Assembly: GCA_902626505.1 (NCBI GenBank)
Contig: CACOFQ010000001.1
Location: forward strand, 5,471-69,470
DNA from: an uncultured Marinoscillum sp.
GTDB lineage: Bacteria; Bacteroidota; Bacteroidia; Cytophagales; MED-G16
Reading direction: 5' to 3'
Length of the DNA: 64,000 bases
Shown here: piece after piece, positions 2,093-45,299 of the stretch
How positions within the stretch are numbered: the stretch's first letter is position 1
Layout of the letters: each line of letters starts with the position of its first letter
Program-made: the position numbers and the translations under genes
Notes under the pieces: generated by a model
Told to the model about the DNA's origin: nothing
Seen by the model: the letters and a program-made list of their open reading frames with translations, nothing else
The model's database searches: none

Positions 2093-3316
2093 TTATAATC
2101 TGCTATTAAGATAATTGTTAAATGCAGATCCAAAGGTATAACCTATTGCTATTCTAAATTCAGATCTAAAGTCAGTTGCAATTTCTTGTTGTTGTAATAG
2201 TAAATCCTCAATAGATGCATTGCCTTTTGGTAAACTTAATTGGTCTCTAATTAATTCAATTTCTCCTCCAAATTTTATAGAAAGTCCTTCAAATACCCTA
2301 ATTGAAAACCAACTATCTAAACGTAAACTATTTTTAGATGGATCCTGTAGAAATGCTTTGCCTCTTAGATTAGTATATATTTCACCCCAAGGTTGTCTAA
2401 ATCTTGTTTCAAAAGCTAATTGATGTAGATAAACATTTTCCTCCATCTTATTATAAATAGTTTCCTCTATATAATTTCTATATCCATATCCAATTCTATA
2501 GTTAATAACCATTTCTCTTCTTACAAATTCATAATAAGGGTAAAAACTATATTCTATTGCCGGCATAAAATAATATCTAAAATCAATATTTTGATAGGTA
2601 TCTCCACTTGCACCTGCATTAAAACCAGCTGACCACTTATTATTAATACTCCAAACACTTTTAGCATCAAATGATTTTCTATTTCTTTTACTTATAAATG
2701 TATTGTCTTGACTTTCATATTTATTATTAGATCTTTCAAAATCGATATCGAACTGTAATTTTATTTTATCTGTAACTTTATCTGCATCTAGCTCTATTCT
2801 AATATTTGATTCATTTCTGCTTGTTTCATTTTCAAAGTTAACTTCTCCAGAACTCTGAAAAACCCAATTTTTCCATTTATCAGAACTTGATTCGTATGAG
2901 TTTTTATTATTATTATTGATAGAGTCATAAGAAATATTTATTTTATTAGATATATCACTTTCAGCTAAGAAATATACTAAGCCAATATCAATTTTTCTTT
3001 TTAGTTCATTTCTTACTTCATCACTTGTTAGCCTAGGGTTTGTATCTAAAACTAATGATAGTTCTTTATCTGAAAAAATATTTTTTCCAATGAAATCTAG
3101 AGTATATCTATTCCCATTGTTTGCATTTCTATTTCTATAAATAAATAATTGAATATCAGCAAGACCTTGATCTCTTACATGGTTGACATAATTTATTTCA
3201 CTTTTTAAGAAGTTATTGTCACATCTATCACATTTAATAAATAGACTGTTTAAATTATTTTGAGCATATAGATCATTAGAGATAAATAAAATAAAGGATA
3301 TAAGTATTTTTTTCAT
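2093..3316 (-). CDS. Hypothetical outer-membrane beta-barrel protein
   Basis: Signal peptide (MKKILISFILFISNDLYAQ), a CxxC motif near the N-terminus (KCDRCD), and alternating aromatic/polar beta-strand pattern in the C-terminal half. I cannot name a family. Confidence 0.55.
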   Translation of the reverse strand: MKKILISFILFISNDLYAQNNLNSLFIKCDRCDNNFLKSEINYVNHVRDQGLADIQLFIYRNRNANNGNRYTLDFIGKNIFSDKELSLVLDTNPRLTSDEVRNELKRKIDIGLVYFLAESDISNKINISYDSINNNNKNSYESSSDKWKNWVFQSSGEVNFENETSRNESNIRIELDADKVTDKIKLQFDIDFERSNNKYESQDNTFISKRNRKSFDAKSVWSINNKWSAGFNAGASGDTYQNIDFRYYFMPAIEYSFYPYYEFVRREMVINYRIGYGYRNYIEETIYNKMEENVYLHQLAFETRFRQPWGEIYTNLRGKAFLQDPSKNSLRLDSWFSIRVFEGLSIKFGGEIELIRDQLSLPKGNASIEDLLLQQQEIATDFRSEFRIAIGYTFGSAFNNYLNSRL

Positions 3317-6188: not shown

Positions 6189-6794
6189 ATGATTTTAGTT
6201 CAACCACAATATTTTCCTACAGTAAATTTTTTTAAGAAATTTGAAAATAATAAAATATTTATTGATTATAACTCCGATTATTCACAGTATTTAAATATAA
6301 ATAAAACTAGAATTGTAAATCTTTCTAATACTTTTGAAATGGAAGTTCCTTTGGTCTTTAATTCTAAAGATATTAAAATAAAGGAGTTAAAAATAGACCA
6401 TAGCAGAAACTGGATTAACAGTCACATTCAATCTATTCAATCATCTTATGGTAAATTTCCATATTATATCTATTACATAGATGACATTATAGAAGTTTTA
6501 AAACTAAGACATAATTTCTTGATTGACTTAAACTATGACTTATTGACATTATTATATAAGTTTTTAAATTTTGAAAATAAAATTCAAAAATTTCAAAATA
6601 AATACAACTTAGGGGATATAATTAAAGTATATAATCATTACAATTCAAATATTGAAAAGGATAATATTGAAGAGCAGAGGAATAATTTATTTCTTGGCAA
6701 GAAATTTGATTATAGTTATAGTGTGATAGACTTAATTTTTTTAAAAGGACCTGAATCAGGTTATTTTATAAGAAATTTTAAAGAAAAAAATTAA
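6189..6794 (+). CDS. WbqC-like family protein (function unknown)
   Basis: N-terminus MILVQPQYFPTVNFF and internal W...H...I...YGKFPYY resemble WbqC-family proteins. Assignment is by motif memory only. Confidence 0.45.
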   Translation: MILVQPQYFPTVNFFKKFENNKIFIDYNSDYSQYLNINKTRIVNLSNTFEMEVPLVFNSKDIKIKELKIDHSRNWINSHIQSIQSSYGKFPYYIYYIDDIIEVLKLRHNFLIDLNYDLLTLLYKFLNFENKIQKFQNKYNLGDIIKVYNHYNSNIEKDNIEEQRNNLFLGKKFDYSYSVIDLIFLKGPESGYFIRNFKEKN

Positions 6795-6837: not shown

Positions 6838-9366
6838 ATGGAAGCAAAGTTTTCAAATAGAGTTAAAGAGGTAATATCATTGAGTAGAGAAGAGGCTCTC
6901 AGACTTGGTCATGATTACATAGGCACTGAACATTTATTGCTTGGTGTTATAAGAGAAGGGGAAGGAGTAGCTATCGGATTATTAAAAAAGCTGGGAATCA
7001 GTTTAGAAGATCTAAGAGCATCAGTTGAGCATAACACAAAGAATACAACATCCTCTAATTTAAAGAATGTTACTAATATACCATTAACTCGTCAGACTGA
7101 AAAAGTTCTTAAAATAACGTATTTAGAAGCAAAAATATTTAAAAGTAAACTCATTGGAACAGAACATTTATTATTATCAATACTTAGAGATGAGGATAAC
7201 ATTGCCACGCAGATTTTAGATAAATTTGATGTTACTTATGATGTTGTTAAAGAATTACTTGAATATCAAACAAGTAACCCACAAGCCACTACTTCATCTG
7301 AGCCAATGGAAGAAGATGACATGTCTGAATTTAAAGGTAGTTCTAAATCTAAGTCACAAAAAGTAAAAGAGAAATCAAAAACTCCAATTTTAGATAACTT
7401 TGGTAAAGATTTAACAAAACTTGCAGAGCAAAATAAACTTGACTCTGTGATTGGTAGAGAAAAAGAAATTGAGAGGGTAGCTCAAATATTGACTAGAAGG
7501 AAGAAGAATAATCCTATTTTAATAGGAGAACCTGGTGTCGGAAAAACAGCAATAGCTGAAGCTTTAGCGTTGAGAATTACTCAAAAAAAGGTATCTAGAA
7601 TACTTCATAATAAGAGAGTCGTTACCTTAGATCTAGCTTCTTTAGTTGCAGGAACAAAATATAGAGGTCAATTTGAAGAGAGAATGAAAGCCGTAATGAC
7701 AGAAATTGAAAAATCTGATAATATTATTTTATTTATTGATGAACTTCATACAATAGTAGGAGCAGGTGGAGCCTCTGGATCATTAGACGCATCAAATATG
7801 TTTAAACCTGCACTAGCAAGAGGAGAGTTACAATGTATAGGAGCAACGACATTAGATGAGTACAGACAATATGTTGAAAAAGATGGCGCTTTAGCAAGAA
7901 GATTTCAAAATGTGATAATTGACCCTACTACACCTGAAGAAACACAAAATATTTTAGATAATATTAAAGATAAATACGAAAGTCATCATAATGTTATTTA
8001 TTCTAAAGATGCGATTGAGGCTTGTGTAAAACTATCAGACAGGTACATAAGCGACAGATTTTTACCTGACAAGGCAATTGATTTAATGGATGAAGCTGGT
8101 TCAAGAGTTCATATGCATAATTTAGACGTACCTGAGGTCATAATTGATATTGAAAATAAGATTGAGGAGATCAAAAGTCAAAAAAATCAAGTAGTCCAAA
8201 ATCAAAAATATGAAGAGGCTGCTCAATTAAGAGATACTGAAAAAAAGCTTCTTACCGAATTAGATATTCAAAAGAAAAAGTGGATTGAGGAGTCTAAGAA
8301 AAAGAGACATAAAGTAGAAGAAAAAAATATTGCTGAAGTAATTTCAATGGTTACAGGCATTCCTCTAGAAAGAATTGAACAAAATGAAAGCTCAAGATTA
8401 TTGTCTATGTCAAAAACTTTATCAAAAAAAGTTGTAGGGCAAGATAGTGCGATTGATAAATTAGTAAGGGCAATAAAAAGAACCAGAGTTGGTTTAAAGG
8501 ACCCTAAGAAACCAATTGGATCTTTCATTTTTTTAGGACCGACTGGTGTTGGTAAAACAGAATTAGCCAAGGTTCTTGCAAATAATCTTTTCGATAAAGA
8601 TGATGCATTGATAAGAGTAGATATGTCAGAATATATGGAGAAATTTTCTATTTCTAGACTTGTTGGAGCTCCTCCAGGATATGTTGGATATGAAGAAGGA
8701 GGTCAACTAAGTGAAAAAGTAAGGAGAAAACCATACAGTGTTATATTACTCGATGAAATAGAAAAAGCACATCCTGATGTTTTTAATTTATTATTGCAAA
8801 TTCTCGATGAAGGTTTCTTAACTGACGGACTAGGACATAGAGTTGATTTTAGAAATACTATTTTGATTATGACTTCAAATGTTGGAGCAAGAGATGTTCA
8901 AGACTTTGGGGCAGGAATTGGGTTTGACACTAAATCAAGAGTAGAAAACATAAATGAAAATTTAAATTCAACAATTGACAAAGCTCTCCAAAGAACATTT
9001 AACCCTGAATTTATTAATAGACTAGATGATATTATTATATTTAATTCTCTTACAAAAGAGGACTTATATAAAATTATAGATATTAATCTCAAAAAGCTTT
9101 ATTCGAAAGCTGATGAAATTGGATATTCTATTGACTTGACAAATGAGGCAAAAGATTTCATCATTGAAAAAGGGTATAATCCTAAATATGGTGCTCGTCC
9201 ATTGGAAAGAGCTATTCAAAAATATGTTGAAGATGTTTTAGCTGAAGAAATATTATCTGGTAACGTCAAAAAAGGTGACTTAGTACTTGCTGATTACGAT
9301 AAAAAGTTAAAAGAAATTAAAATTACTAAACTCGACACCAAAAAAAATAAGACTAAGTCTAAGTAA
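6838..9366 (+). CDS. clpC: ATP-dependent Clp protease ATP-binding subunit ClpC (class I AAA+)
   Basis: Two Clp_N repeats, Walker A GEPGVGKT and GPTGVGKT, a UVR-like motif (KYEEAAQLRDTEKKL), and the ClpB_D2-small C-terminus. Confidence 0.9.
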   Translation: MEAKFSNRVKEVISLSREEALRLGHDYIGTEHLLLGVIREGEGVAIGLLKKLGISLEDLRASVEHNTKNTTSSNLKNVTNIPLTRQTEKVLKITYLEAKIFKSKLIGTEHLLLSILRDEDNIATQILDKFDVTYDVVKELLEYQTSNPQATTSSEPMEEDDMSEFKGSSKSKSQKVKEKSKTPILDNFGKDLTKLAEQNKLDSVIGREKEIERVAQILTRRKKNNPILIGEPGVGKTAIAEALALRITQKKVSRILHNKRVVTLDLASLVAGTKYRGQFEERMKAVMTEIEKSDNIILFIDELHTIVGAGGASGSLDASNMFKPALARGELQCIGATTLDEYRQYVEKDGALARRFQNVIIDPTTPEETQNILDNIKDKYESHHNVIYSKDAIEACVKLSDRYISDRFLPDKAIDLMDEAGSRVHMHNLDVPEVIIDIENKIEEIKSQKNQVVQNQKYEEAAQLRDTEKKLLTELDIQKKKWIEESKKKRHKVEEKNIAEVISMVTGIPLERIEQNESSRLLSMSKTLSKKVVGQDSAIDKLVRAIKRTRVGLKDPKKPIGSFIFLGPTGVGKTELAKVLANNLFDKDDALIRVDMSEYMEKFSISRLVGAPPGYVGYEEGGQLSEKVRRKPYSVILLDEIEKAHPDVFNLLLQILDEGFLTDGLGHRVDFRNTILIMTSNVGARDVQDFGAGIGFDTKSRVENINENLNSTIDKALQRTFNPEFINRLDDIIIFNSLTKEDLYKIIDINLKKLYSKADEIGYSIDLTNEAKDFIIEKGYNPKYGARPLERAIQKYVEDVLAEEILSGNVKKGDLVLADYDKKLKEIKITKLDTKKNKTKSK

Positions 9367-10105
9367 CTAGTCCTCCATCTACTTTTATTATTTGTCCAGT
9401 TATATATGAAGCCTTATCTGAGGCTAAATATGAACAAAGATTTGCTACATCGCTTACATTCCCCGCTCTTTTTAAAGGAATTGATTCTATCCAGTTTTCT
9501 AATAATTTTCCATCGCCCTTATTAGTCATGTCAGTCTCAATAAATCCTGGAGCAATGGCGTTACACCTTATATTTCTAGATCCTAACTCTAATGCAATTG
9601 ACTTAGTAAACCCATTTATTCCAGCTTTTGATGCTGAATAATTAGATTGACCAGCATTACCTTTAACTCCTACTATTGAGCTTATATTGATAATTACACC
9701 ATCTTTTTTTTTCATAAATTCTCTTACAGCACATTTTGTAAGATTGAAACATGAATTTAGATTTATATCAATAACCTTCTTCCATGAATCTTCATCCATT
9801 CTTAATAAGAGATTATCTCTAGTAATTCCAGCATTATTAATTAAAATATCATATGAACCAAAATCTTTGATTACATTTTCAATTAGTTCACTACTTTGAT
9901 CAAAGTTTGATGCATCAGATTTATATTTAATTACCTTGACTCCGTAAGACTTAGCATTTTTTTCAACCTCAATGGCTGATGATTCACTACTTAAATATGT
10001 GAAAGCAATGTTGCAACCTTCTTGAGCAAATTTTTCTACAATTCCTTTTCCTATACCTTTTGAACCACCAGTAATTATAGCTGTTTTATTTTCTAAATTT
10101 TTCAT
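9359..10105 (-). CDS. fabG: 3-oxoacyl-[ACP] reductase FabG (SDR family)
   Basis: TGGSKGIGKGI cofactor motif, NNAGI, and the catalytic S...YSASKAG. Confidence 0.85.
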   Translation of the reverse strand: MKNLENKTAIITGGSKGIGKGIVEKFAQEGCNIAFTYLSSESSAIEVEKNAKSYGVKVIKYKSDASNFDQSSELIENVIKDFGSYDILINNAGITRDNLLLRMDEDSWKKVIDINLNSCFNLTKCAVREFMKKKDGVIINISSIVGVKGNAGQSNYSASKAGINGFTKSIALELGSRNIRCNAIAPGFIETDMTNKGDGKLLENWIESIPLKRAGNVSDVANLCSYLASDKASYITGQIIKVDGGLVT

Positions 10106-10221: not shown

Positions 10222-11610
10222 ATGTCATACAATTTAATTGTTATTGGATCGGGTCCTGGAGGATATGTTGCAGCTATTAGAGCCTCTCAATTAGGATTGA
10301 AAGTTGCAGTAGTTGAAAAAGAATCACTAGGGGGAATATGTTTAAATTGGGGGTGTATTCCCACAAAAGCTCTTCTGAAAAGTGCTCAGGTTTTCGATTA
10401 CGTTAGTCATTCCAGTGATTATGGCATAAATATTAAGAGTTCTAGTGTAGATTTTAATTCAATTATTAATAGAAGTAGAGGAGTTGCTGATGGTATGAGT
10501 AAAGGTGTCAACTTCCTAATGAAGAAAAATAAAATTGATATTTTAACTGGTTTTGGTAAAGTTATTTCAAAAAATGAAGTAGAGGTTGAAGACAGTAAAA
10601 AAAATAAGGTTGTACATAAGGCTGATAATATTATTATTGCTACTGGTGGTAGATCAAGGGAACTGCCAAATATAAAAATTGATGGTGAGAAGGTAATAGA
10701 GTATAGAAAAGCAATGACATTAAAAAAACAACCAAAATCAATGGTTGTAATTGGTTCTGGTGCAATTGGTTCTGAATTTGCATATTTCTATAATAGTATT
10801 GGAACCAAAGTAACATTAGTTGAATATTTACCAAATATTCTTCCTCTTGAAGATATCGATGTTTCAAAGCAACTGGAAAAATCTTTCAAAAAGTCTGGAA
10901 TCGATATTTTAACTAATACTGAAGTTAAGTCTGTTACAACTACATCTAAAGATTGTAAAGTTACTTACTCAAATAATGACAAGGAATCTACAATTAATTG
11001 TGATATTGTATTATCAGCTGTTGGAGTTGAAACAAATATTCAAAATATTGGCCTTGAAGAACTCGGAATTATTACTGAAAAAGGAAAGATAAATGTTGAT
11101 GATTATTATAAAACAAATATTGATGGGGTATATGCTATAGGTGATATAATTAAAGGTCCTGCTCTAGCTCATGTTGCTTCTGCGGAAGGAATTATTTGTG
11201 TAGAAAAAATAGCAGGAAAAAATCCTGGTGTTTTAAATTATGATAATATTCCTTCATGTACTTATTGTAGCCCTGAGGTTGCATCAGTAGGTTTTACCGA
11301 AAAACAAGCCAAAGATTTAGGTTATGAAATCAATGTTGGTAAATTTCCTTTCTCAGCATCTGGAAAGGCAAATGCAGCGGGTCATTCAGATGGTTTTGTA
11401 AAAGTTATCTTTGACAAAAAGTACGGAGAATGGCTTGGGTGTCATATGGTTGGTTACAATGTCACTGAAATGATAGCTGAGGTTGTAGCTGCTAGGAAAT
11501 TAGAGACTACTGCTCATGAAATAATTAAATCAGTTCATCCTCATCCGACAATGTCAGAAGCAATTATGGAAGCTACAGCAGCTGCCTATAATGAGGTTAT
11601 TCACTTATAA
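10222..11610 (+). CDS. lpdA: Dihydrolipoyl dehydrogenase (E3)
   Basis: GSGPGGYVAAIRA FAD motif, redox-active GGICLNWGCIPTK disulfide, and C-terminal HPHPTMSE dimerisation motif. Confidence 0.9.
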   Translation: MSYNLIVIGSGPGGYVAAIRASQLGLKVAVVEKESLGGICLNWGCIPTKALLKSAQVFDYVSHSSDYGINIKSSSVDFNSIINRSRGVADGMSKGVNFLMKKNKIDILTGFGKVISKNEVEVEDSKKNKVVHKADNIIIATGGRSRELPNIKIDGEKVIEYRKAMTLKKQPKSMVVIGSGAIGSEFAYFYNSIGTKVTLVEYLPNILPLEDIDVSKQLEKSFKKSGIDILTNTEVKSVTTTSKDCKVTYSNNDKESTINCDIVLSAVGVETNIQNIGLEELGIITEKGKINVDDYYKTNIDGVYAIGDIIKGPALAHVASAEGIICVEKIAGKNPGVLNYDNIPSCTYCSPEVASVGFTEKQAKDLGYEINVGKFPFSASGKANAAGHSDGFVKVIFDKKYGEWLGCHMVGYNVTEMIAEVVAARKLETTAHEIIKSVHPHPTMSEAIMEATAAAYNEVIHL

Positions 11611-12474
11611 TACTTCTTTTAACATTAAACCGATATTTGCAGGGGATTCAGCAACAGTTAGTCCGCTTTCCCTCATTATTTTCATTTTAGCTTCAGCAGT
11701 ATCGTCTTTACCTCCGATTATTGCACCAGCATGACCCATTCTTTTTCCTTTTGGTGCTGTTTGACCCGCAATAAAACCAACTACTGGTTTTTGGTTACCA
11801 TTATCTTTAATCCATTTTGAAGCTTCAGCTTCATAGTTACCACCTATTTCTCCAATCATAACTATACCTGAAGTCTCACTATCATTTATGAATAATTTTA
11901 TAGCTTCCAAAGTGGAGGTACCAACAATTGGATCACCACCTATGCCAATTGCAGTTGATATTCCAAACCCTGCTTTTACAACTTGGTCTGCAGCTTCATA
12001 TGTCAAGGTTCCAGATTTTGAGACTATACCAACATTTCCTTTTTTGAAAACAAAACCAGGCATAATTCCAACTTTAGCTTCTTCGGGAGTTATAATTCCT
12101 GGACAATTTGGACCGATTAAAGTACTTTTTTTATTTTTTAAAGCTGCTTTAACTTTAATCATATCTTTAACTGGAATCCCCTCAGTTATTGCAACAATAA
12201 CTTCAATTTCAGAGTCTATAGATTCTAAAATTGCATCTGCAGCAAAAGCTGGAGGAACAAAAATTATTGAAACGTTAGCCCCTGTATTTTTTTTTGCGTC
12301 ATAAACAGTATTAAATACAGGTCTTTCTAAGTGTGATGAGCCACCTTTTCCAGGAGTAACTCCACCTACTACATTTGTGCCATATTCTAGCATTTGAGAA
12401 GCATGGAAACTTCCTTCAGATCCTGTAAATCCCTGAACTATTACTTTGGAGTTTTTATTAACTAGAACACTCAT
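11605..12474 (-). CDS. sucD: Succinate--CoA ligase subunit alpha
   Basis: VIVQGFTGSEGSFH, GPNCPGIITP, SKSGTLTYE and the phosphohistidine loop MGHAGAII. Confidence 0.95.
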   Translation of the reverse strand: MSVLVNKNSKVIVQGFTGSEGSFHASQMLEYGTNVVGGVTPGKGGSSHLERPVFNTVYDAKKNTGANVSIIFVPPAFAADAILESIDSEIEVIVAITEGIPVKDMIKVKAALKNKKSTLIGPNCPGIITPEEAKVGIMPGFVFKKGNVGIVSKSGTLTYEAADQVVKAGFGISTAIGIGGDPIVGTSTLEAIKLFINDSETSGIVMIGEIGGNYEAEASKWIKDNGNQKPVVGFIAGQTAPKGKRMGHAGAIIGGKDDTAEAKMKIMRESGLTVAESPANIGLMLKEVL

Positions 12475-12478
12475 TCTT

Positions 12479-12955
12479 TTAAATTTGGCTCAAATATAAA
12501 TCACTAAATTCCCTTACACAACCATATCCTCCCTTAGTATTTAGTACTAATGATACTTTTTCTTTTACAGGTTGAGAAGCATCACTAGGGCAAGCGCTAA
12601 AACCAACAATATCAATTATACTCATATCATTTATGTCATCTCCAATAAACGCAACTTCTTCTAATGTAATTTTATCTTCATTTATCCAATCAATTAAGAT
12701 TTTATCTTTTGGTGCATTTCCTACATAACAGCTTTTAATACCTAGATAAGATGCTCTTGATTTAATTCCATCACCTCTCTCTGAATGACTTATAATTCCA
12801 ATTTTCACACCTTTTTTAATAAGTTCATAAATACCTACTCCGTCTTTTGCATTATATCTTTTAGATTCAATGCCATTTTCATCAATATATATGCCATTAT
12901 CTGTCATGGTACCATCTACATCTAGAATAAGCATTTTTATTTTAGGTATTTTCAT
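12479..12955 (-). CDS. KdsC-family HAD-IIIA sugar-acid phosphate phosphatase
   Basis: LILDVDGTMTDNGIY...AKDGVGI...IGDDINDM...GGYGCVRE is colinear with 3-deoxy-ulosonate-phosphate phosphatases (KdsC / KDN-9-P phosphatase family). Confidence 0.8.
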   Translation of the reverse strand: MKIPKIKMLILDVDGTMTDNGIYIDENGIESKRYNAKDGVGIYELIKKGVKIGIISHSERGDGIKSRASYLGIKSCYVGNAPKDKILIDWINEDKITLEEVAFIGDDINDMSIIDIVGFSACPSDASQPVKEKVSLVLNTKGGYGCVREFSDLYLSQI

Positions 12956-13950
12956 ATCAAATTTCTATTTACAGCTTTACAAATTGGAACCAAACTTGAG
13001 AACATTTCTTCAAATTCTTTGAAGTTTAGTTGCTGAGATGCATCAGACTTTGCAACTTTTGGATTAGGATGACTCTCTATTAATAAACCATCTATTCCCA
13101 TTGCTACACAAGCTCTAGTCAAATCAGGAACTCCATAACTATATCCCATAGCATGACTAGTATCTAAGATGATGGGTAAATTGGTGTACTCCTTTAAAAA
13201 AGAAACTCCACATAAATCTAAAGTAAACCGGGTCTTTGTTTCAAAAGTTCTAATTCCTCTCTCACATAAAATTACATTTGGATTTCCTTCTGATAAAATA
13301 AATTCAGCAGCCTGGACAAACTCCTGTAGATTAGACCCAAAACCTCTTTTAAGGAGTACAGGTTTGTTTTGTTGACCTGTTTCTCTGAGAATACCATGAT
13401 CATACATTGCTTTGGCTCCAATTTGAATAATGTCAGTGTATTTTATGACATCATCAACGTGAGATGCGTCTTTAACCTCTGAAATTATATTAAATCCGAA
13501 CTCATCTCTTATATCCGATAACATTTTTAATCCTTCTACACCAAGTCCTTGGAAAGAATACGGTGATGTTCTAGGTTTAAAACAACCAGCTCTAAGTGTA
13601 GTAAGATTTAATTTCTTTAATAAATTAGCTGATTCTCTAATTTGTTCTTCACTTTCAATAGAACATGGACCAGTTATCATTAGTGTGTTATTTGTTTCCC
13701 CTCCGACTTCAATATTATTTATTTTTACCTTCCTAGTTTTTTTAATATAATCTTTACTTGATAATTGAATATCTGATTCTAAAACAAATTTTTCTGAGAT
13801 AAAGTCTTCATATTTTTTATCAATAGATTTTGTTTTAGAGGATGTTATTATCAATTTATTTTTGTTATTGAATATTAATTTTCCTTCTAGCTCTGATGAA
13901 ATTTTTCTTGCATTATCGGCAGATATATTTTCTTGTAAATGAATAATCAT
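12952..13950 (-). CDS. Type I-beta 3-deoxy-7-phosphoheptulonate (DAHP) synthase-like aldolase with an N-terminal ferredoxin/ACT-like domain
   Basis: GPCSIESEEQ, RAGCFKPRTSPYSFQGLG, LLKRGFG and ILCERGIRTFETKTRFTLD are near-colinear with Thermotoga-type DAHPS. The motif is KPRT (DAHPS-type), not KANRS (KdsA-type). The N-terminal extension is about 70 aa. Confidence 0.8.
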   Translation of the reverse strand: MIIHLQENISADNARKISSELEGKLIFNNKNKLIITSSKTKSIDKKYEDFISEKFVLESDIQLSSKDYIKKTRKVKINNIEVGGETNNTLMITGPCSIESEEQIRESANLLKKLNLTTLRAGCFKPRTSPYSFQGLGVEGLKMLSDIRDEFGFNIISEVKDASHVDDVIKYTDIIQIGAKAMYDHGILRETGQQNKPVLLKRGFGSNLQEFVQAAEFILSEGNPNVILCERGIRTFETKTRFTLDLCGVSFLKEYTNLPIILDTSHAMGYSYGVPDLTRACVAMGIDGLLIESHPNPKVAKSDASQQLNFKEFEEMFSSLVPICKAVNRNLI

Positions 13951-14960
13951 GATTCGCTTTTTATTAGATTAAAAAATGTAACCAACCCTACTAACCTCAT
14001 TACCTCATTAGTAACGGGAATAAAAGATATAAGAAAATTATGGTTTTGAATAGTCTTCAACATATTATTAATACTATCACCTTCTTTTATAATTATTGGA
14101 TTCTTATTTATTATGTCCTCAGCTTTAAAAGTGCTAAAAGCTTTTATGTTATTAATTAAACTTTTTCGTATATCTGCCATACTAATAATCCCAATTAATT
14201 CTTTTTTTCTATTTTCTACACAGGTAAAACCCAGATCATATTTTTCAATAGTAGATAAAATTTCATCTATTTTGCTATTTTCATTTACAATTGGTGACTC
14301 ATTTCTATTAAGCATAAACTCACTTACTTTAATTTGAGATGATGATACTGATGATTTTAGTTCCAATAAAGACTTTGCAATATCACCGTTAACAAGGTAA
14401 GATCCAGATACAACAGATTTAACGCCATGAATTCTAAGTATAAATGCAATTTCATCATTTACCCCTCCATCTATATGAACCTTTTTTGATGGATATGTAT
14501 TCTTGAAATCTCTTATTTTTTTAAAATTAATTTTATTGAATTTACCTCCACTTTCTCCCGGAGTAGTAGTCATAAGAAGAATAAAGTCACAATTGTTTTT
14601 ATAATTTTCAAATTTACTTACGTCTGTATCTGATGTTATTGCAATACCAAATTGAGTCTTAACTGAGTTCGGAAAATCTAATTCATCCTTAATATTTTCT
14701 AATTGGTATGTTACAAATTCAATCTCATTTTCAATAATGAAGTTCTCATATTTATTTGGGTTATCTGAAATAATGTGTAAGTCAATAGGCTTATTGCTAA
14801 TCTTTCTAATTTCTTTAATATCTTCTTCGATCTTTTTTAATTCTATTTTTTTATCATTAAAGTCAACATGAAACATATCAACATTATATTTATCAAGATC
14901 TTGAATAAGGATTTCTAAACTTCTGTCCTTGTTTGAGTATATTGATGCTGATATTTTCAT
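13947..14960 (-). CDS. Ribulose-phosphate 3-epimerase-like barrel fused to a C-terminal CBS pair
   Basis: The N-terminal ~215 aa carry RPE-like motifs (FHVDFND, DLHIIS, MTTTPGESGGKF, HIDGGV). The C-terminal ~120 aa has two CBS-like repeats (VSEFM...IGIISMADI; ...LVGLVTFFNL). Confidence 0.7.
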   Translation of the reverse strand: MKISASIYSNKDRSLEILIQDLDKYNVDMFHVDFNDKKIELKKIEEDIKEIRKISNKPIDLHIISDNPNKYENFIIENEIEFVTYQLENIKDELDFPNSVKTQFGIAITSDTDVSKFENYKNNCDFILLMTTTPGESGGKFNKINFKKIRDFKNTYPSKKVHIDGGVNDEIAFILRIHGVKSVVSGSYLVNGDIAKSLLELKSSVSSSQIKVSEFMLNRNESPIVNENSKIDEILSTIEKYDLGFTCVENRKKELIGIISMADIRKSLINNIKAFSTFKAEDIINKNPIIIKEGDSINNMLKTIQNHNFLISFIPVTNEVMRLVGLVTFFNLIKSES

Positions 14961-15025
14961 TTTGACTCAAATATAATTCACTTATTTTCATTGTGTAATA
15001 CATTAATAATCTAATTTTACATATT

Positions 15026-16585
15026 ATGAAAATGAAAAAATCTATTTCAGTTTTAGTTTATCTCTTTTGTGCAATTTTTATTTTAATTAATTGTACAAAT
15101 AAAGAATTAACATTTATTGAAGATGTTGATGGTCTTAAAGTTGACTCTATGGCCCCTTTTTATCATGGAGTAGCATCCGGTGATCCTTTAGAAAATAAAG
15201 TTATAATTTGGACTAGAGTTACACCTGAAAAAACTTTAAGTGAAATTTCTGTAAAATGGAAAATATCTGAATCAAAGGATTTTAATGAAATTTTAAATGA
15301 AGGTGTATTTATTACAAATTATGAGAGAGATTATACTGTCAAAGTTGACGTGGATAAATTAAGGCCTGGTAAAACATATTTTTATAAGTTTGAAGCTTTA
15401 GGAAAAGAATCAATGGTTGGCAGAACAAAAACAATTAGTGATTCTATAAATTCATTAAAGATAGCAGCAATTAGCTGTAGTGATTATCAAAGAGGTTTTT
15501 TTAATGCTTATGGATCACTTGCTGATGAGGATTTAGATGCAGTAATACATTTAGGGGATTATATTTATGAGTATAAGTCTCGTGATTATAGTAATGGGAT
15601 TTTCAAAAGATTACATTTACCTGATAAAGAAATTGTTTCCTTGTCAGACTATAGAACAAGGCATTCTCAATACAAATTAGATCCTGATTTGATAAGTGCT
15701 CATAGTAGTCATCCTTTCATTTTAATATGGGATGATCACGAAACTGCTAATAATACATACAAAGATGGAGCTGAAAATCATCAAGAGGAAAAAGAAGGAA
15801 ATTTTAATGAAAGAATTTCATCAGCACTTCAAGCTTATTACGAGTGGCAGCCAATAAGAGAAAATCAAATGCCATACAGAAAGTTTACTTTTGGTGGTTT
15901 AGCAGATCTCATAATTCTAGAAGAAAGGCTAGAAGGTAGAACTAAACAAGCTGCTAGTTTAGAAGATTCTTCTCTTTTTCAAATTGACAGGACAATGCTT
16001 GGAGAGATACAACTTAATTGGTTTTTAAATAATTTATCTGATAATTCAACCCAGTGGAAGATAATAGGTAATCAAGTTATATTTTCATACTTAAATTATG
16101 GAAGACCAGACTTTAATATAAATTTAGATTCATGGGATGGCTATCCTGTTGAGAGACAAAGAATTGCTGATCATATAGTTAGTAATAATATAAATGATGT
16201 TGTTTTTATTACGGGAGACACACATCAGTCTTGGGCTTTTGAGGTAAATCATATTCCATTAGAATCTGACTATCCTATAAAACCTTATGCATTGGAATTT
16301 GGTACCCCAAGTATAAATTCAGGAAATTCTGATGAAAGGTTTTCTAATGTTCCTTTACAAAATTTAATTGACCATGAAAATTACATTACGGATGAATCTA
16401 TCAACCCGCATCTTAAATATACAAATACAAGAGATCATGGTTACCTAATTTTAGAATTCAATAGAGAGAGAGTCCAGGCAACTTGGAAGTATGTAAAAAC
16501 TTTAATACGAAGAGATAAATCTATTAAAGAGACTATCCAAATTGAAAGTGATTCAAAAAGTAATAAACTAAATAAAATTATTTAG
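15026..16585 (+). CDS. phoD: PhoD-like alkaline phosphatase / phosphodiesterase, predicted lipoprotein
   Basis: FYHGVASGDP, IWTRV and HLGDYIYEY, then WDDHE, GDTHQSWA. The N-terminus has a lipobox-like LINC and no twin-arginine motif. Confidence 0.8.
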   Translation: MKMKKSISVLVYLFCAIFILINCTNKELTFIEDVDGLKVDSMAPFYHGVASGDPLENKVIIWTRVTPEKTLSEISVKWKISESKDFNEILNEGVFITNYERDYTVKVDVDKLRPGKTYFYKFEALGKESMVGRTKTISDSINSLKIAAISCSDYQRGFFNAYGSLADEDLDAVIHLGDYIYEYKSRDYSNGIFKRLHLPDKEIVSLSDYRTRHSQYKLDPDLISAHSSHPFILIWDDHETANNTYKDGAENHQEEKEGNFNERISSALQAYYEWQPIRENQMPYRKFTFGGLADLIILEERLEGRTKQAASLEDSSLFQIDRTMLGEIQLNWFLNNLSDNSTQWKIIGNQVIFSYLNYGRPDFNINLDSWDGYPVERQRIADHIVSNNINDVVFITGDTHQSWAFEVNHIPLESDYPIKPYALEFGTPSINSGNSDERFSNVPLQNLIDHENYITDESINPHLKYTNTRDHGYLILEFNRERVQATWKYVKTLIRRDKSIKETIQIESDSKSNKLNKII

Positions 16586-16589
16586 TTAT

Positions 16590-17423
16590 ATGAAATACAT
16601 TTATTATATAGTGTCAAGACTACCTATGAGTTTTCTGTACTTTCTGTCAGATATATTTTATATTTTTATTTCAAGGTTTTACAGAAAAAAAGTAGTAGAA
16701 ATGAATATAAAAAACTCATTTCCTAAACTATCTGAAAAAGAGCTAATTAAGATTAAAAAGCGATTTTATAATAATTTTTGTGATATATTTTTCGAGACTA
16801 TAAAATCTTATACAATTAGTAAAAATCAACTATTTAATAGTGTTAGGTTTAAAAATATTGATATAATAAATAATCATGTTTTGAATAATGAAAGGGTAGT
16901 TGTTCTAACAAGTCACCAATGTAACTGGGAATGGCTAGCTATCTCAGCAGAAATTAACTTAAAATCGACTCTACATTTTATTTATAAAAAATTAAGAAAT
17001 CGATCTTTTGATGAAATTATGTTTAAATCAAGATCAAAATTTGGATCGGTTCTTATAGAATCAAAAGATGCTATTTCTAAGCTTAAAAATAACTTAGATA
17101 CAGTAAAGGTATTAGGTATTGTTGCAGATCAGTCCCCAAATAAAAAAAACAGAATAGAATGGGCTAAAATGTTAAATCAGGATACTGCTTTTTTTGATTC
17201 AATAAGTTATATACCTGTAATTACAAATAGTCAAGTTTATTATGCCTCAATGGTTAGAGAATCAAGAGGAAAATATATTGTAGAATTTATTAAGATTTCT
17301 AGTCCTCCTCACACAAATAAAAAACCAATAATAAAAGAATATGCAGCTCGATTAGAAGATCAGATAATTCAAAACCCTGGGGATTGGCTTTGGTCTCATA
17401 AAAGATGGAAATTAACCAAATAA
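16590..17423 (+). CDS. Lipid A biosynthesis (LpxL/HtrB-like) lysophospholipid acyltransferase
   Basis: 277 aa with an N-terminal TM segment, the HQCNWEW (HX4E-like) catalytic motif and a C-terminal [11 protein letters not shown] signature typical of the HtrB/MsbB family. Confidence 0.7.
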
Positions 17424-27782: not shown

Positions 27783-28730
27783 ATGAAAAATTTAAAACAA
27801 TTATTTATTGGATTCGTGGCGATGCTAACTGCAGTATCCTGTGGAGATCCTGTTTTACCTGTAGAGCTTCAGCCTGAAATGCAATATGGTGCATACGCTA
27901 GGAAGATGTCTCAAACTGGTAAATTTGATTTCTTTGCTATCTCTACTTCACAGATTGATATTCATGTTGAATATTATGACGAGAATGGAGGTAAAAATAT
28001 CTCAACGTATGATATAGAAGTTGAATATATAGACATTACTGGTGGTGGTGCAAATAGTATAGGTAAAAAACCTTTTAGGACTATCAATTCTTCGGAGTTT
28101 GTAGTTAATTCTGATGGTTATTTAAGTTCAGATATTAGTTTAGGATTTGATGCTGCTTTAACAGCACTCGGAGTAACTTCTGCTGATATAACTGGAGGTA
28201 ATACTGTCAGATTCTGGTTTACTATTACTAAAACAGATGGTACAAAATATGACTATAATAATACAGGACCAAACTTAATGTCTTCTAATGCATTCGGTGC
28301 ATTATTTAGATTGAATGTTGGTATTGTATGTCCGTCAGATTGGAAGTTAGGTTCATTATCTGGTACAAATAGTAATGATGGTACTCTCGGTACGTTAGGT
28401 GCTGGTGAAACTACGGCATCAGTTGAACTTACTAGAAAATCTGGTAAGGATAATCAATATCAATTAAGTGATTGGACTCTTGGTTATAGAACACTTAAAT
28501 ACACTGGTACATACTATACTACTGGACCAGTATTTATTGACAACTGTAATGTGGTTTCAATAACTGGTGTTGGTGATTATGGTTATGGTTTCTCTATGTT
28601 ACCTGGTACTGCGTCTGTAAGTTCTGATAGAACAGCATTTACTTATTCGTGGGAAAGTGACTTAGGTGAAGGTGGTGTAGCCACATTAACTTATGACGAT
28701 GGATCACTTTGGCCAGAACTGTACAACTAA
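27783..28730 (+). CDS. Hypothetical surface lipoprotein, positional SusE/F analogue
   Basis: Lipobox (LTAVSCG), 18 nt after susD-like, and the same elevated-GC, Gly/Thr-rich composition as the two upstream genes. I recognise no family motif. Confidence 0.55.
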   Translation: MKNLKQLFIGFVAMLTAVSCGDPVLPVELQPEMQYGAYARKMSQTGKFDFFAISTSQIDIHVEYYDENGGKNISTYDIEVEYIDITGGGANSIGKKPFRTINSSEFVVNSDGYLSSDISLGFDAALTALGVTSADITGGNTVRFWFTITKTDGTKYDYNNTGPNLMSSNAFGALFRLNVGIVCPSDWKLGSLSGTNSNDGTLGTLGAGETTASVELTRKSGKDNQYQLSDWTLGYRTLKYTGTYYTTGPVFIDNCNVVSITGVGDYGYGFSMLPGTASVSSDRTAFTYSWESDLGEGGVATLTYDDGSLWPELYN

Positions 28731-36805: not shown

Positions 36806-36888
36806 GGGGGGATACCAAAGCGGTCAAATGGGGCAGACTGTAAATCTGTTGACTTATGTCTTCGCAGGTTCGAATCCTGCTCCCCCCA
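36806..36888 (+). tRNA. tRNA-Tyr (anticodon GTA)
   Basis: Acceptor GGGGGGA/TCCCCCC, anticodon loop ACTGTAAAT context, a long variable arm and GGTTCGAATCC. Length 83 nt. Confidence 0.9.
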
Positions 36889-36907
36889 CATAATTTATGA
36901 TAAATAA

Positions 36908-36980
36908 GCGGGCGTAGCTCAGTTGGTAGAGCGACAGCCTTCCAAGCTGTAGGTCGAGGGTTCGAATCTCTTCGCCCGCT
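36908..36980 (+). tRNA. tRNA-Gly (anticodon TCC)
   Basis: Acceptor GCGGGCG/CGCCCGC, anticodon stem ACAGC/GCTGT with loop CTTCCAA, and GGTTCGAATC T-loop. Confidence 0.9.
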
Positions 36981-36985
36981 CACAT

Positions 36986-37057
<72 letters not shown>

Positions 37058-37076
37058 CGATAAAAAAAATAAATAA

Positions 37077-37106
37077 TTGAAATATTATTTAATTAAGTTA
37101 AATTTG
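37077..37106 (+). promoter_or_regulatory. Candidate internal promoter upstream of tuf
   Basis: aTTG (37077-37079), 19-nt spacer, TAAATTTG (37099-37106). It lies 18 nt upstream of the tuf ATG. Confidence 0.4.
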
Positions 37107-37123
37107 AGTTAAATTTTAAAATT

Positions 37124-38311
37124 ATGGCAAAAGAAACCTTTGATAGATCGAAGCCCCATGTAAATATTGGGACTGTTGGTCACGTTGATCATGGTAAAAC
37201 TACTCTTACTGCTGCTATCACTAAAGTATTAGCTGATAAAGGATTAGCAGAAAAAAGAGATTTTGAACAAATTGATAATGCTCCTGAAGAAAAAGAAAGG
37301 GGTATTACCATTAATACTGCACATGTTGAATATCAAACTGATAATAGACATTATGCTCATGTAGATTGTCCAGGTCACGCTGATTATGTAAAAAATATGG
37401 TAACTGGTGCTGCACAAATGGATGGAGCTATTCTAGTTGTTGCTGGTACTGATGGCCCTATGCCTCAGACTAGAGAACATATACTTTTAGCAAGACAAGT
37501 TGGTGTACCCGCATTAGTTGTTTTTATAAATAAAGTTGATTTAGTAGATGACTCTGAATTATTAGAATTAGTTGAAATGGAAATAAGAGAACTTCTAAGT
37601 TTTTATAAGTTTCCAGGTGATGATATTCCTGTAGTTCAGGGATCAGCATTAGGAGCTTTAGAAGGAAAAGCTGAGTGGGTAGAAAAAATTATGGAACTTA
37701 TGAGTCAAGTTGATTCTTATATCCCTGAACCTACAAGAGAAACAGATAAAGACTTTTTAATGCCAGTTGAAGATGTATTCTCTATAACAGGAAGAGGTAC
37801 TGTTGCTACAGGTAGAATTGAAAGAGGTGTCGTTAATACATCTGATGCTGTAGATATTATTGGTATGGGTGCAGAAGATTTAAAATCTACTATAACAGGA
37901 GTAGAAATGTTTAGAAAGATTTTAGATAAAGGTCAAGCTGGTGATAATGCAGGTCTTCTTTTGAGAGGTATAGAAAAAACTGATATCAAAAGAGGAATGA
38001 TTATTTGTAAGCCTGGATCAGTAACTCCTCATGCTCATTTTAAGGCGGAAGTTTATGTTTTATCTAAAGAAGAAGGTGGTAGACATACTCCTTTTTTCAA
38101 TAAATATAGACCTCAGTTTTATATGAGAACAACTGACGTTACTGGCGAAATTATGTTGCCAGATAAAGTTGAGATGGTCATGCCAGGAGATAACCTAACA
38201 ATTGAGGTAAAATTAATTAATGCTGTTGCTCTTGAGCAAGGATTAAGATTCGCAATTAGAGAAGGAGGAAGAACTGTTGGAGCGGGTCAAGTAACAGAAA
38301 TTTTAGACTAA
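37124..38311 (+). CDS. tuf: Elongation factor Tu
   Basis: [30 protein letters not shown] and NKVDLV, across 395 aa. Confidence 0.98.
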
Positions 38312-38381
38312 AATTTTTAAATTTTTTTTAACAAATTATTTAACTTATTTATTTGTTAAATAATAACAATTATTCTAAATT

Positions 38382-38404
38382 TGCAGGCCGTTGGCCTGCA
38401 TTTT
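38382..38404 (+). terminator. Rho-independent terminator after tuf
   Basis: TGCAGGCC-GTT-GGCCTGCA 8-bp GC-rich stem followed by TTTT. Confidence 0.7.
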
Positions 38405-38410
38405 AGTTAT

Positions 38411-38483
38411 ACGGGTGTAGCTCAATTGGTAGAGTAGCGGTCTCCAAAACCGTTGGTTGGGTGTTCGAGTCACTCCACCCGTG
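38411..38483 (+). tRNA. tRNA-Trp (anticodon CCA)
   Basis: Acceptor ACGGGTG/CACCCGT, anticodon stem GCGGT/ACCGT with loop CTCCAAA, and GTTCGAGTC T-loop. Confidence 0.9.
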
Positions 38484-38506
38484 CTAGGGCCGTTTAATTT
38501 TTTGAT

Positions 38507-41363: not shown

Positions 41364-41393
41364 TCCACATTTAAAATATTGTGGATATTTTTT
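41364..41393 (+). terminator. Weak hairpin plus T-run (candidate rplL-rpoB attenuator)
   Basis: TCCACA (41364-41369) pairs with TGTGGA (41380-41385) with a 10-nt loop, followed by TATTTTTT. Confidence 0.35.
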
Positions 41394-41414
41394 AAACCTA
41401 TAAAATATAACCAA

Positions 41415-44400: not shown

Positions 44401-45281
44401 AAGATGTTGTTTTAGAGGATTGGACTGATGATAAAAAAATTAATATTTCAGTTTCACAAGCAGTTAAGAATTATGTTATTAAAAGAAACGATTTAGCTTC
44501 AAGCTTTAAAAAAGAAAAATTTTCACTTGAAGTTGGTGATGAACTAGCTCCTGGTATTGTTCAAATGGCAAAAGTCTATGTTGCTAAGAAGAGAAAACTA
44601 AAAGTTGGTGATAAAATGGCCGGAAGGCATGGAAATAAGGGTGTAGTAGCAAGAATTGTTAAAGAGGAAGATATGCCTTTTCTAGAGGATGGCTCTACAG
44701 TTGATATTGTTTTAAACCCCCTTGGTGTTCCATCTCGAATGAATATTGGTCAGCTGTACGAGACTGCATTGGGCTGGGCCGGACTTAAGCTTAATAAGAA
44801 ATATAGAACTCCAATATTTGATGGAGCTACAGCCGATGAAGTTAGTAAAGAATTAAACCTTGCTAAATTACCTTCTTTTGGAAGAACACATTTATTTGAC
44901 GGTTCAACTGGTAAAAGATTTGATCAGAAAGTGACAGTTGGTGTAATTTATATGCTTAAACTAGGACACTTAATTGATGATAAAATGCATTCAAGATCAA
45001 TTGGTCCTTATTCATTGATTACTCAGCAGCCACTAGGTGGTAAGGCTCAATTTGGTGGTCAAAGATTTGGAGAAATGGAAGTTTGGGCATTAGAGGCATT
45101 TGGAGCTTCTCATGTCCTTCAAGAAATTCTTACTATTAAATCCGATGATATAGTTGGAAGAGCAAAAGCTTATGAAGCAATAGTTAAGGGTGAAAACATG
45201 CAAACCCCTGGTATTCCTGAGTCTTTTAATGTTTTGATTCATGAACTAAGAGGTTTAGCTCTAGAAATAACAATGAAATAA
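41415..45281 (+). CDS. rpoB: DNA-directed RNA polymerase subunit beta
   Basis: Full-length RpoB motifs ([33 protein letters not shown] and GRHGNKGV). There is no ATG near the 5' end. I prefer the TTG at 41415 ([10 protein letters not shown]...), because the track start at TTG 41379 lies inside the attenuator hairpin. Confidence 0.9.
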
Positions 45282-45299
45282 TTTTATAATATACAATAT

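Follow-up and report, generated by a model that had tools for sequence, protein, structure and literature searches.

A conserved three-gene cassette of an RPE-like barrel with a CBS pair, a DAHP synthase-like enzyme and a KdsC-family phosphatase as a candidate route to a Kdo-type ulosonic acid

Does a gene that annotation pipelines name as DAHP synthase (DAHPS; DAHP being the 7-phosphate of 3-deoxy-D-arabino-heptulosonate), and that is labelled in hundreds of genomes as the entry enzyme of the shikimate pathway, serve aromatic biosynthesis when it is coupled to an epimerase-like gene and to a phosphatase gene? The question is raised by a stretch of 64,000 nucleotides (the window) from an uncultured Marinoscillum sp. 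(GenBank assembly GCA_902626505.1, contig CACOFQ010000001.1, positions 5,471 to 69,470), which includes three minus-strand genes coding for a ribulose-5-phosphate 3-epimerase (RPE)-like barrel fused to a pair of cystathionine-beta-synthase (CBS) domains, a type Ibeta DAHPS-like enzyme that condenses phosphoenolpyruvate (PEP), and a phosphatase of the KdsC family. The analysis presented here points to a self-contained route to a free 3-deoxy-2-ulosonic acid of the type of Kdo (3-deoxy-D-manno-oct-2-ulosonate), which would be activated with CMP and used for lipopolysaccharide (LPS) or another surface glycan, and not for aromatic compounds (probability of about 0.62). That the cassette encodes a dedicated ulosonic-acid pathway of some kind is considered probable. 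A first-pass annotation of the same DNA had proposed that the trio mirrors KpsF-KdsA-KdsC with different parts. Those elements of the proposal that could be examined were all borne out, and nothing that it had named as refuting was observed. The features on which the argument is based are the following:

13947-14960, minus strand: gene 1, RPE-like (beta/alpha)8 barrel (aa 1-205) plus CBS pair (aa ~210-333), 337 aa
12952-13950, minus strand: gene 2, type Ibeta DAHPS-like PEP-condensing synthase, 332 aa
12479-12955, minus strand: gene 3, C0 haloacid dehalogenase (HAD) phosphatase of the KdsC/YrbI family, cluster-specific subtype, 158 aa
13947-13950, minus strand: ATGA stop/start overlap of genes 1 and 2, read as translational coupling
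12952-12955, minus strand: ATGA stop/start overlap of genes 2 and 3
11605-12474, minus strand: sucD (succinyl-CoA synthetase alpha subunit), starting 4 nt past the stop codon of gene 3

The layout described at first pass, with three minus-strand open reading frames (ORFs) joined by 4-nt overlaps and sucD 4 nt further on, agrees with these coordinates, and the arrangement was found conserved well outside the window. Two independent collections, consisting of 80 loci from genomes and 76 additional ones from metagenomes, have been compared, and gene order was counted in the loci with enough flanking sequence (133 for the synthase and 121 for the phosphatase). The synthase gene is located directly downstream of the gene for the RPE-like protein with the CBS pair (RPE-CBS) in 129 of 133 loci, and the KdsC-like phosphatase gene comes next after the synthase in 112 of 121. 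Of 77 genome loci, 70 also have genes 1 and 2 overlapping by 4 nt, and the gap between genes 2 and 3 is -4 to +6 nt in most genome loci. Clustering of all neighbouring ORFs has revealed no further gene conserved beside these three; sucD, which is adjacent in only 29 of the 80 genome loci, is a neighbour located outside the conserved cassette. The RPE-CBS protein is encoded in at least 572 species genomes, and the closest match to the window is a marine Flammeovirgaceae/Marinoscillaceae metagenome-assembled genome (MAG) with 98% identity. The Bacteroidota loci are labelled as Cytophagales, Flavobacteriales, Bacteroidales, Chitinophagales or Saprospiraceae, and the cassette is also present in a populous gammaproteobacterial clade and in one Myxococcota MAG, that is, in three phyla. 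The clustering of the trio across Bacteroidota, which the first-pass annotation had left to be checked, is confirmed and extends beyond this phylum, and the three-gene arrangement is far beyond chance. Because order and overlap are conserved in Bacteroidota, in the gammaproteobacterial clade and in the Myxococcota MAG, the genes for RPE-CBS, synthase and phosphatase constitute a mobile, selectively maintained cassette and not a chance adjacency.

All the motifs previously pointed out in protein 1 (HVDFND, DLH, TTPGESGGKF and HIDGG), protein 2 (FKPRTSPYSFQG and LCERGIRTFE) and protein 3 (DVDGT, GDDIND and GGYGCVRE) have been found, and the earlier domain assignments of the three proteins hold in profile searches with Pfam and NCBIfam. 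Protein 1, which annotation pipelines call merely a 'CBS domain-containing protein', matches PF00834 (Ribul_P_3_epim) over the full length of the model (6e-25) and contains two CBS domains. Its AlphaFold2 (AF2) model (pLDDT 83.9) displays an RPE-type barrel followed by the CBS pair, and its top Foldseek matches in the PDB are all RPEs (target TM-score 0.71-0.79, ~20% identity). Residues H31, D33, H62 and D164 align with the metal and acid-base tetrad of RPE, which includes the two catalytic Asp, and are conserved in at least 99.7% of 311 distinct RPE-CBS family members.

Protein 1 resembles RPE (PF00834) in its barrel fold, its His/Asp/His/Asp tetrad and the G-rich loops that bind phosphate, but it differs in its low identity (~20%), its altered substrate loops and the added C-terminal CBS pair. 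When it was aligned with E. coli Rpe and rice RPE, the loops HxDxMDGxFVPN, FHxE and NPxTP were found altered: protein 1 has no MDGxFVPN loop, carries Asn35 in place of Met, and reads YQ86 and TS where RPE has FH and NP. The scores are also far under the RPE equivalog cutoffs in the TIGR01163/NF004076 tests (78 vs 212.6 and 99.5 vs 165 bits), so that protein 1 clears no RPE threshold other than the generic Pfam one. An ordinary ribulose 5-phosphate (Ru5P) 3-epimerase, the identity that according to the first-pass annotation would have spoken against its proposal, is thus disfavoured by the equivalog cutoffs and by the lack of the RPE substrate loops. No SIS domain was detected in protein 1, and E. 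coli KdsD matches it through the CBS pair only, with 37 bits or less. A derivation of the CBS pair specifically from KdsD was considered and rejected, since KpsF is just marginally its top CBS match in NCBIfam and the structures of KdsD CBS pairs rank only 47-50 in the fold search.

Protein 2 matches PF00793 (DAHP_synth_1) with 1e-67 and passes the NCBIfam model NF006421 over its full length (355.5 bits vs a cutoff of 335). Its catalytic barrel (aa ~78-332) is preceded by an N-terminal domain (aa 1-~72) of divergent ferredoxin-like type. The ~70-aa N-terminal region, considered at first pass to be a domain of regulatory type, was recovered with hhalign as a distant homologue of the ferredoxin-like regulatory domain of DAHPS (probability 95.8%, 15% identity), and gave no match to Pfam PF18152. 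Compared with authentic E. coli KdsA, protein 2 reads KP--RTS and lacks both the KANRS motif and the 11-residue beta7-alpha7 insertion, and its score with the KDO8PS model (133 bits) is under the cutoff of 242. This alignment confirms the DAHPS signature (KPRT) that had been noted instead of the KdsA one (KANRS), and a convergence of the synthase on KdsA was rejected in view of KPRTS and the short loops. Because KANRS and the beta7-alpha7 insertion are absent, the substrate pocket is predicted to be DAHPS-like and sized for a tetrose phosphate, and not KdsA-like.

A comparison of the specificity positions has been carried out between 76 trio synthases and 106 other representatives of type Ibeta DAHPS. 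The metal ligands (C96, H266, E292 and D303), the KPRTS motif (K125-S129) and most PEP ligands are common to both sets. In the trio synthases the segment QIGAKAMYD replaces QIGARNMQN (R180K, Q183Y, N184D and L187I), and G121A, Y217F and H257N are also fixed; the fixed substitutions fall at positions that are 75-98% conserved in the 106 other enzymes. QIGAKAMYD, with K180, Y183 and D184, is the signature of the trio synthase subfamily. At position 180, which we take to be equivalent to AroG R165, the trio synthases have Lys in 100% of cases where 96% of the others carry the PEP-binding Arg of the G(A/S)R motif. The Arg of this motif has been described as a PEP-binding site that is completely conserved in every type of DAHPS (PMC6362186). 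A search of 1.84 billion representatives has revealed that the trio-type synthases collapse to few clusters, which merge into the Ibeta DAHPS continuum at ~45% identity. The synthase resembles the Thermotoga maritima-type Ibeta DAHPS (NF006421) in fold, metal ligands, KPRTS and an N-terminal domain of distant homology, but it differs in the fixed substitutions, including that of the PEP-binding Arg by Lys, and in being coupled or fused to a phosphatase and not to enzymes of the aromatic pathway.

A natural fusion bears directly on the last point. In P0242, a protein of 521 aa from an organism with 67.5% GC whose contig begins 71 nt upstream of the gene, a synthase with the trio signature is joined to a phosphatase of the cluster type, whereas ordinary Ibeta DAHPS representatives are fused instead to prephenate dehydratase/ACT, chorismate mutase, EPSP synthase or a GATase domain. 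The fusion ties the phosphatase to the product of the synthase. Since dephosphorylated DAHP is useless to dehydroquinate synthase, a fused phosphatase would be reasonable only if the purpose is to obtain the dephosphorylated acid, and P0242 supports the earlier suggestion that the cassette yields a free ulosonic acid and does not feed the shikimate pathway.

Protein 3 passes the TIGR01670 model of the KdsC/YrbI family (115 bits vs a cutoff of 106.95) and contains the HAD motifs DVDGT and GDDIND. It is under the cutoff of the equivalog for the Kdo 8-phosphate (Kdo8P) phosphatase KdsC (116 vs 208 bits) and also under that of NF058599 for 2-keto-3-deoxynononic acid (KDN)-9-P phosphatase (123.9 vs 180 bits), with the KDN-9-P phosphatase of B. 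thetaiotaomicron being both its best-scoring solved structure and its best-scoring NCBIfam model. The marks of its subtype are IISHSERG, SACPSDA and GGYGCVRE. After motif 2, I-(T/S)-(G/A)-R is present in the canonical copies of KdsC and in four out of five aligned KdsC-family proteins of solved structure; in the cluster-linked phosphatases this segment reads I-S-(H/S/N)-(S/G), is one residue longer and contains no Arg, and they also have ACPxDA and GCVRE in common. An E. coli KdsC query gives 159-176 bits with the canonical copies, against 50-118 bits with the cluster subtype. The residues used for KDN9PP/KDO8PP specificity in protein 3 are in part those that we presume to be determinant. Catalytic HAD motifs are intact in all phosphatase versions. 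According to these profiles and alignments, none of the three cassette proteins is a standard member of its family.

The phosphatase is fused to a helix-turn-helix (HTH) domain in about a third of the loci, and the version in the window is without it. In L057 (8000-8710), L064 (7990-8682) and ~25 other non-Cytophagales loci, this domain is of the Cro/C1 (XRE) type and precedes the phosphatase in a protein of ~230 aa in total. Such a fusion may correspond to an enzyme doubling as transcription factor.

The position of the cassette in other genomes connects it with Kdo and LPS. In eleven gammaproteobacterial contigs it is located between yrbG/mlaA and (kdsB)-(kdsC)-lptC-lptA-lptB-rpoN-hpf-ptsN, the corresponding position being held by kdsD in E. 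coli (reference order verified), and no SIS-domain gene was found in these eleven loci. kdsB is adjacent to the cassette in most of them, with L085 being without kdsB at the site, and a canonical kdsC lies beside the cassette in nine loci and is absent in L081 and L082. This kdsC/kdsB variation was compared at L081 9072-9830 with L077 4544-5838 and L085 4761-5288. The gammaproteobacterial genes have their nearest relatives in Bacteroidota, in versions with neighbours of the type IX secretion system (T9SS) type, which implies a transfer from Bacteroidota with insertion at the Kdo/LPS locus. The analogy with KpsF-KdsA-KdsC is strengthened by cassettes occupying the kdsD slot beside kdsB, kdsC and lptCAB. 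The CBS pair and the kdsD position would represent a functional analogy to KdsD and not membership of its family. Where it takes the kdsD slot in gammaproteobacteria, the cassette amounts to a clean experiment of nature, and its three enzymes, small and soluble, lend themselves to direct assay.

Further context comes from an RPE-CBS group that is deeply divergent (34% identity), keeps the tetrad and occurs in contigs of 23-30% GC. Its genes are co-transcribed with those for a PseF/KdsB-like cytidylyltransferase and an RraA-like protein. In L092 and L098 the divergent RPE-CBS gene is followed by a synthase with a 'KFD' signature, in a locus that includes a nucleotide-sugar dehydrogenase, methyl-, acetyl- and sulfotransferase-like genes and a second KdsB-like gene; in L096 and L097 it is embedded in an apparent legionaminic-acid-type cluster with NeuB. 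From these two contexts, RPE-CBS proteins of the wider family accompany PEP-condensing ulosonic-acid synthases and CMP-sugar synthetases.

Other features of these and of further variant loci were observed. The cluster in L096 (1093-14812, 24% GC) is an apparently complete one of the legionaminic-acid type, with HisF/HisH-like, dehydratase, DegT aminotransferase, PglD-like acetyltransferase, NeuB, 2-epimerase and CBS-nucleotidyltransferase genes and no DAHPS-like synthase, and its cytidylyltransferase, RraA-like and RPE-CBS genes lie inside the cluster. The RraA-like gene (class II aldolase/decarboxylase family) recurs in L092 (4750-8137), L096 (4907-7235), L097, L098, L099 and L152 (3267-3824); it is repeatedly co-transcribed with the divergent RPE-CBS group, and in a single case it follows the trio. 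The KdsC-like gene is absent from the Reichenbachiella-type loci L013 (8050-8955), L038 (8083-8988) and L043 (8068-8973), in which a 301-aa protein of the NTP_transferase family (LAAGRGSRFGG) follows the synthase instead. In L094 (8001-11254), a Firmicute-like contig in which BofA, Gin, RecR and DnaX are neighbours, genes for NeuB and a KdsC-like HAD come after a DAHPS-like gene whose trio signature is partial (K-Y-L), and RPE-CBS is absent. In L091 (7083-12173), a contig of Chitinophagales type, a gene for an MsbA-like ABC exporter lies immediately before RPE-CBS, and an AIR-synthase-related (AIRS) gene after the synthase takes the place of the phosphatase.

Taken as a pathway, the cassette would operate in three steps. 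The RPE-like barrel, with its intact metal/two-Asp machinery, would turn a sugar phosphate of the pentose-phosphate pathway into an aldose phosphate, with the CBS pair giving regulation of nucleotide type as in KdsD; the synthase, which belongs to a PEP-condensing class, would condense this aldose phosphate with PEP; and the KdsC-type phosphatase, linked to the synthase by the gene fusion, would take off the terminal phosphate. The Kdo pathway (KdsD/KpsF-KdsA-KdsC-KdsB) follows the same logic of a sugar-phosphate enzyme with a CBS pair, a PEP condensation and a dephosphorylation by a KdsC-family enzyme. The cassette differs from it in having an RPE-fold barrel and not a SIS isomerase, a synthase with KPRTS and short loops and not with KANRS and an extended beta7-alpha7 loop, and a phosphatase of its own subtype, found together with canonical KdsC. 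In the KDN-9-P pathway of B. thetaiotaomicron, a phospho-ulosonate synthase is likewise followed by a KdsC-family phosphatase (BT1713) that gives the free sugar acid, but the cassette synthase is of the DAHPS family and not NeuB, and its phosphatase is under the KDN9PP cutoff. We know of no RPE-like enzyme in the KDN pathway. By analogy with both systems, the best reading of the cassette would be a Kdo/KDN-type pathway to 'make, condense, dephosphorylate' built on different scaffolds. Full-text literature searches turned up no account of this cassette, nor of any RPE-CBS enzyme acting in the synthesis of ulosonic acids, in agreement with the previous statement that no characterised pathway of this composition was known.

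Regarding the product, KPRTS and the short beta7-alpha7 loop favour tetrose-4-phosphate over arabinose-5-phosphate (A5P) as substrate and, with it, a heptulosonate as product. A seven-carbon acid is proposed only tentatively, at somewhat less than even odds, and Kdo itself would be an unlikely product. In a more specific proposal, which must be regarded as rather doubtful, the RPE-like enzyme would be an erythrose-4-phosphate (E4P) 2-epimerase, and the D-threose-4-P formed would be condensed with PEP to 3-deoxy-D-lyxo-heptulosonate 7-phosphate and released as the free acid, a 'nor-Kdo' pathway widespread in Bacteroidota. E4P is Ru5P minus the C1 hydroxymethyl group (its aldehyde analogue), and D-threose-4-P is analogous in the same way to xylulose 5-phosphate. 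Hypothetically, the conversion of E4P into D-threose-4-P would be the most economical role for an RPE-type epimerase if the substrate is a tetrose phosphate, and it would explain the obligatory coupling of an epimerase with a DAHPS-type enzyme. Once the stereochemistry is worked through, 3-deoxy-D-lyxo-heptulosonate shares the C4-C6 configuration of Kdo, whereas the 3-deoxy-D-arabino-heptulosonate formed from E4P does not, and it has the skeleton of 3-deoxy-lyxo-heptulosaric acid (Dha). The presence of a 3-deoxy-lyxo-heptulosaric acid in LPS cores of Rhizobiaceae has been reported (Russa et al. 1991, reference 105 in PMC5713287). If true, the 'nor-Kdo' proposal would supply a biosynthetic origin for Dha-type residues in some LPS cores.

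Several observations weigh against a dedicated route to a free Kdo-type acid. The synthase passes the DAHPS cutoff and shows ~55% identity to archaeal DAHPS cores, which would suit ordinary DAHP synthesis, and its N-terminal domain shares ancestry with the one in feedback-regulated DAHPS. In Bacteroidota, the cassettes are found amid housekeeping genes with no cytidylyltransferase or glycosyltransferase nearby. In the gammaproteobacterial slot, the missing kdsD is unexplained if the product is not Kdo. Regarding the genes that might otherwise carry out these functions, no aro genes were found near the cassette in 176 loci scanned, and searches with E. coli queries detected no canonical kdsD, kdsA or rpe in 1.93 Mb of cassette loci, a result that is silent on the rest of the genomes. 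Motif searches of the cassette loci for KANRS, SIS and canonical RPE gave false leads only, and L025 8457-9353, taken as a KdsA lead from a motif search, corresponds to an unrelated protein with no KdsA features.

Three other explanations have been considered. The first is a set of three unrelated housekeeping genes that stay together, namely a regulated DAHPS of the shikimate pathway, the Kdo8P phosphatase of the organism and a variant pentose-phosphate epimerase that aids the supply of E4P. The name DAHPS given by the pipelines, the NCBIfam score of the synthase with all its metal ligands, KPRTS and the ferredoxin-like regulatory domain, the TIGR01670 score of the phosphatase and the neighbours sucD, lpd, fabG and lepA are all compatible with this explanation. 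It is nevertheless quite improbable, because a synthase fused to the phosphatase would remove the DAHP that the shikimate pathway needs, the PEP-binding Arg, otherwise conserved, is replaced, coupling and order persist in three phyla and also after horizontal transfer, and the cassette, in contrast with other Ibeta DAHPSs, is never close to genes of the aromatic pathway or joined to them; relatives of the cassette, in addition, adjoin cytidylyltransferases and NeuB. A small-molecule signal or intermediate outside glycan synthesis, such as a regulated DAHP overflow or salvage in which the HTH-fused phosphatase is mainly a ligand-responsive regulator, has very little probability. The HTH domain in about a third of the loci, the regulatory domains on two of the three proteins (CBS pair and ferredoxin-like) and the lack of a nearby glycosyltransferase in Bacteroidota would fit such a role, but the catalytic HAD motifs are intact in every version, and both the gammaproteobacterial loci and the contexts of L092/L096 point to LPS or glycan use.

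The third explanation is closer to the proposed one and is an alternative route to Kdo, in which RPE-CBS would make A5P, either by 2-epimerisation of ribose 5-phosphate or through a new Ru5P isomerase activity, the synthase would produce Kdo8P and the phosphatase Kdo, with KdsD, KdsA and KdsC being replaced. The occupied kdsD slot beside kdsB, kdsC and lptCAB in eleven contigs with no SIS-domain gene, the loss of canonical kdsC in L081 and L082, the architecture of a catalytic domain with a CBS pair that parallels KdsD, the remodelled substrate loop of the synthase and a housekeeping-like distribution and context in Bacteroidota, as would suit an essential sugar, argue for this route. However, the synthase keeps KPRTS without the KANRS motif and the 11-residue insertion of KdsA, it scores below the KDO8PS cutoff (133 vs 242 bits), the phosphatase has no T-G-R, which four of the five aligned KdsC-family proteins of solved structure contain, and most gammaproteobacterial loci keep a canonical KdsC that would be redundant if both phosphatases act on Kdo8P; the replacement route is thus considered unlikely. 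If the product is a Kdo-like acid, as in the reading favoured here, the reconstructions of aromatic amino-acid and of LPS synthesis in Bacteroidota would both be wrong at this point, and the cassette would represent a new ulosonic-acid pathway from recruited RPE and DAHPS scaffolds, with a new activity of the RPE fold. It could also be an answer to the source of heptulosonate-type Kdo analogues in LPS cores.

Upstream of gene 1, a candidate regulatory element was read directly from the sequence:

14968-14975, minus strand: candidate promoter box TATATTTG, 7 nt upstream of the gene-1 ATG

The box TATATTTG sits within a divergent intergenic region of 65 bp and matches TAnnTTTG, which we take to be the Bacteroidota -7 promoter consensus. 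The rest of the window, which is compact and of low GC (30%), contains nothing related to the cassette. A gene for a lipid A lauroyl-acyltransferase (LpxL/HtrB-like) is located on the opposite strand at 16590-17423, two genes upstream of the cassette; it is probably a coincidental neighbour, and it co-occurs in close relatives only (16 of 80 loci). Between the two lies a 519-aa ORF (15026-16585) that resembles a PhoD-type phosphodiesterase by eye only. Downstream of the cassette, sucD and a 462-aa ORF (10222-11610), apparently a dihydrolipoyl dehydrogenase from its translation alone, form a convergent pair whose 3' ends overlap by 6 nt (11605-11610), and another convergent 3' overlap of 8 nt (9359-9366) was observed between an 842-aa ORF (6838-9366) and a 248-aa ORF (9359-10105), which are Clp ATPase-like and FabG-like, respectively, also judged from translation alone. 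The ORFs at 2093-3316 (407 aa), 6189-6794 (201 aa) and 27783-28730 (315 aa) gave no NCBIfam match with E<=1e-5. An ordinary tRNA-Tyr/Gly/Thr cluster and a tRNA-Trp (36806-38484) flank a 395-aa ORF (37124-38311), which is followed by two very large ORFs at 41379-49634; by size and position only, these three ORFs resemble tuf and rpoB/rpoC.

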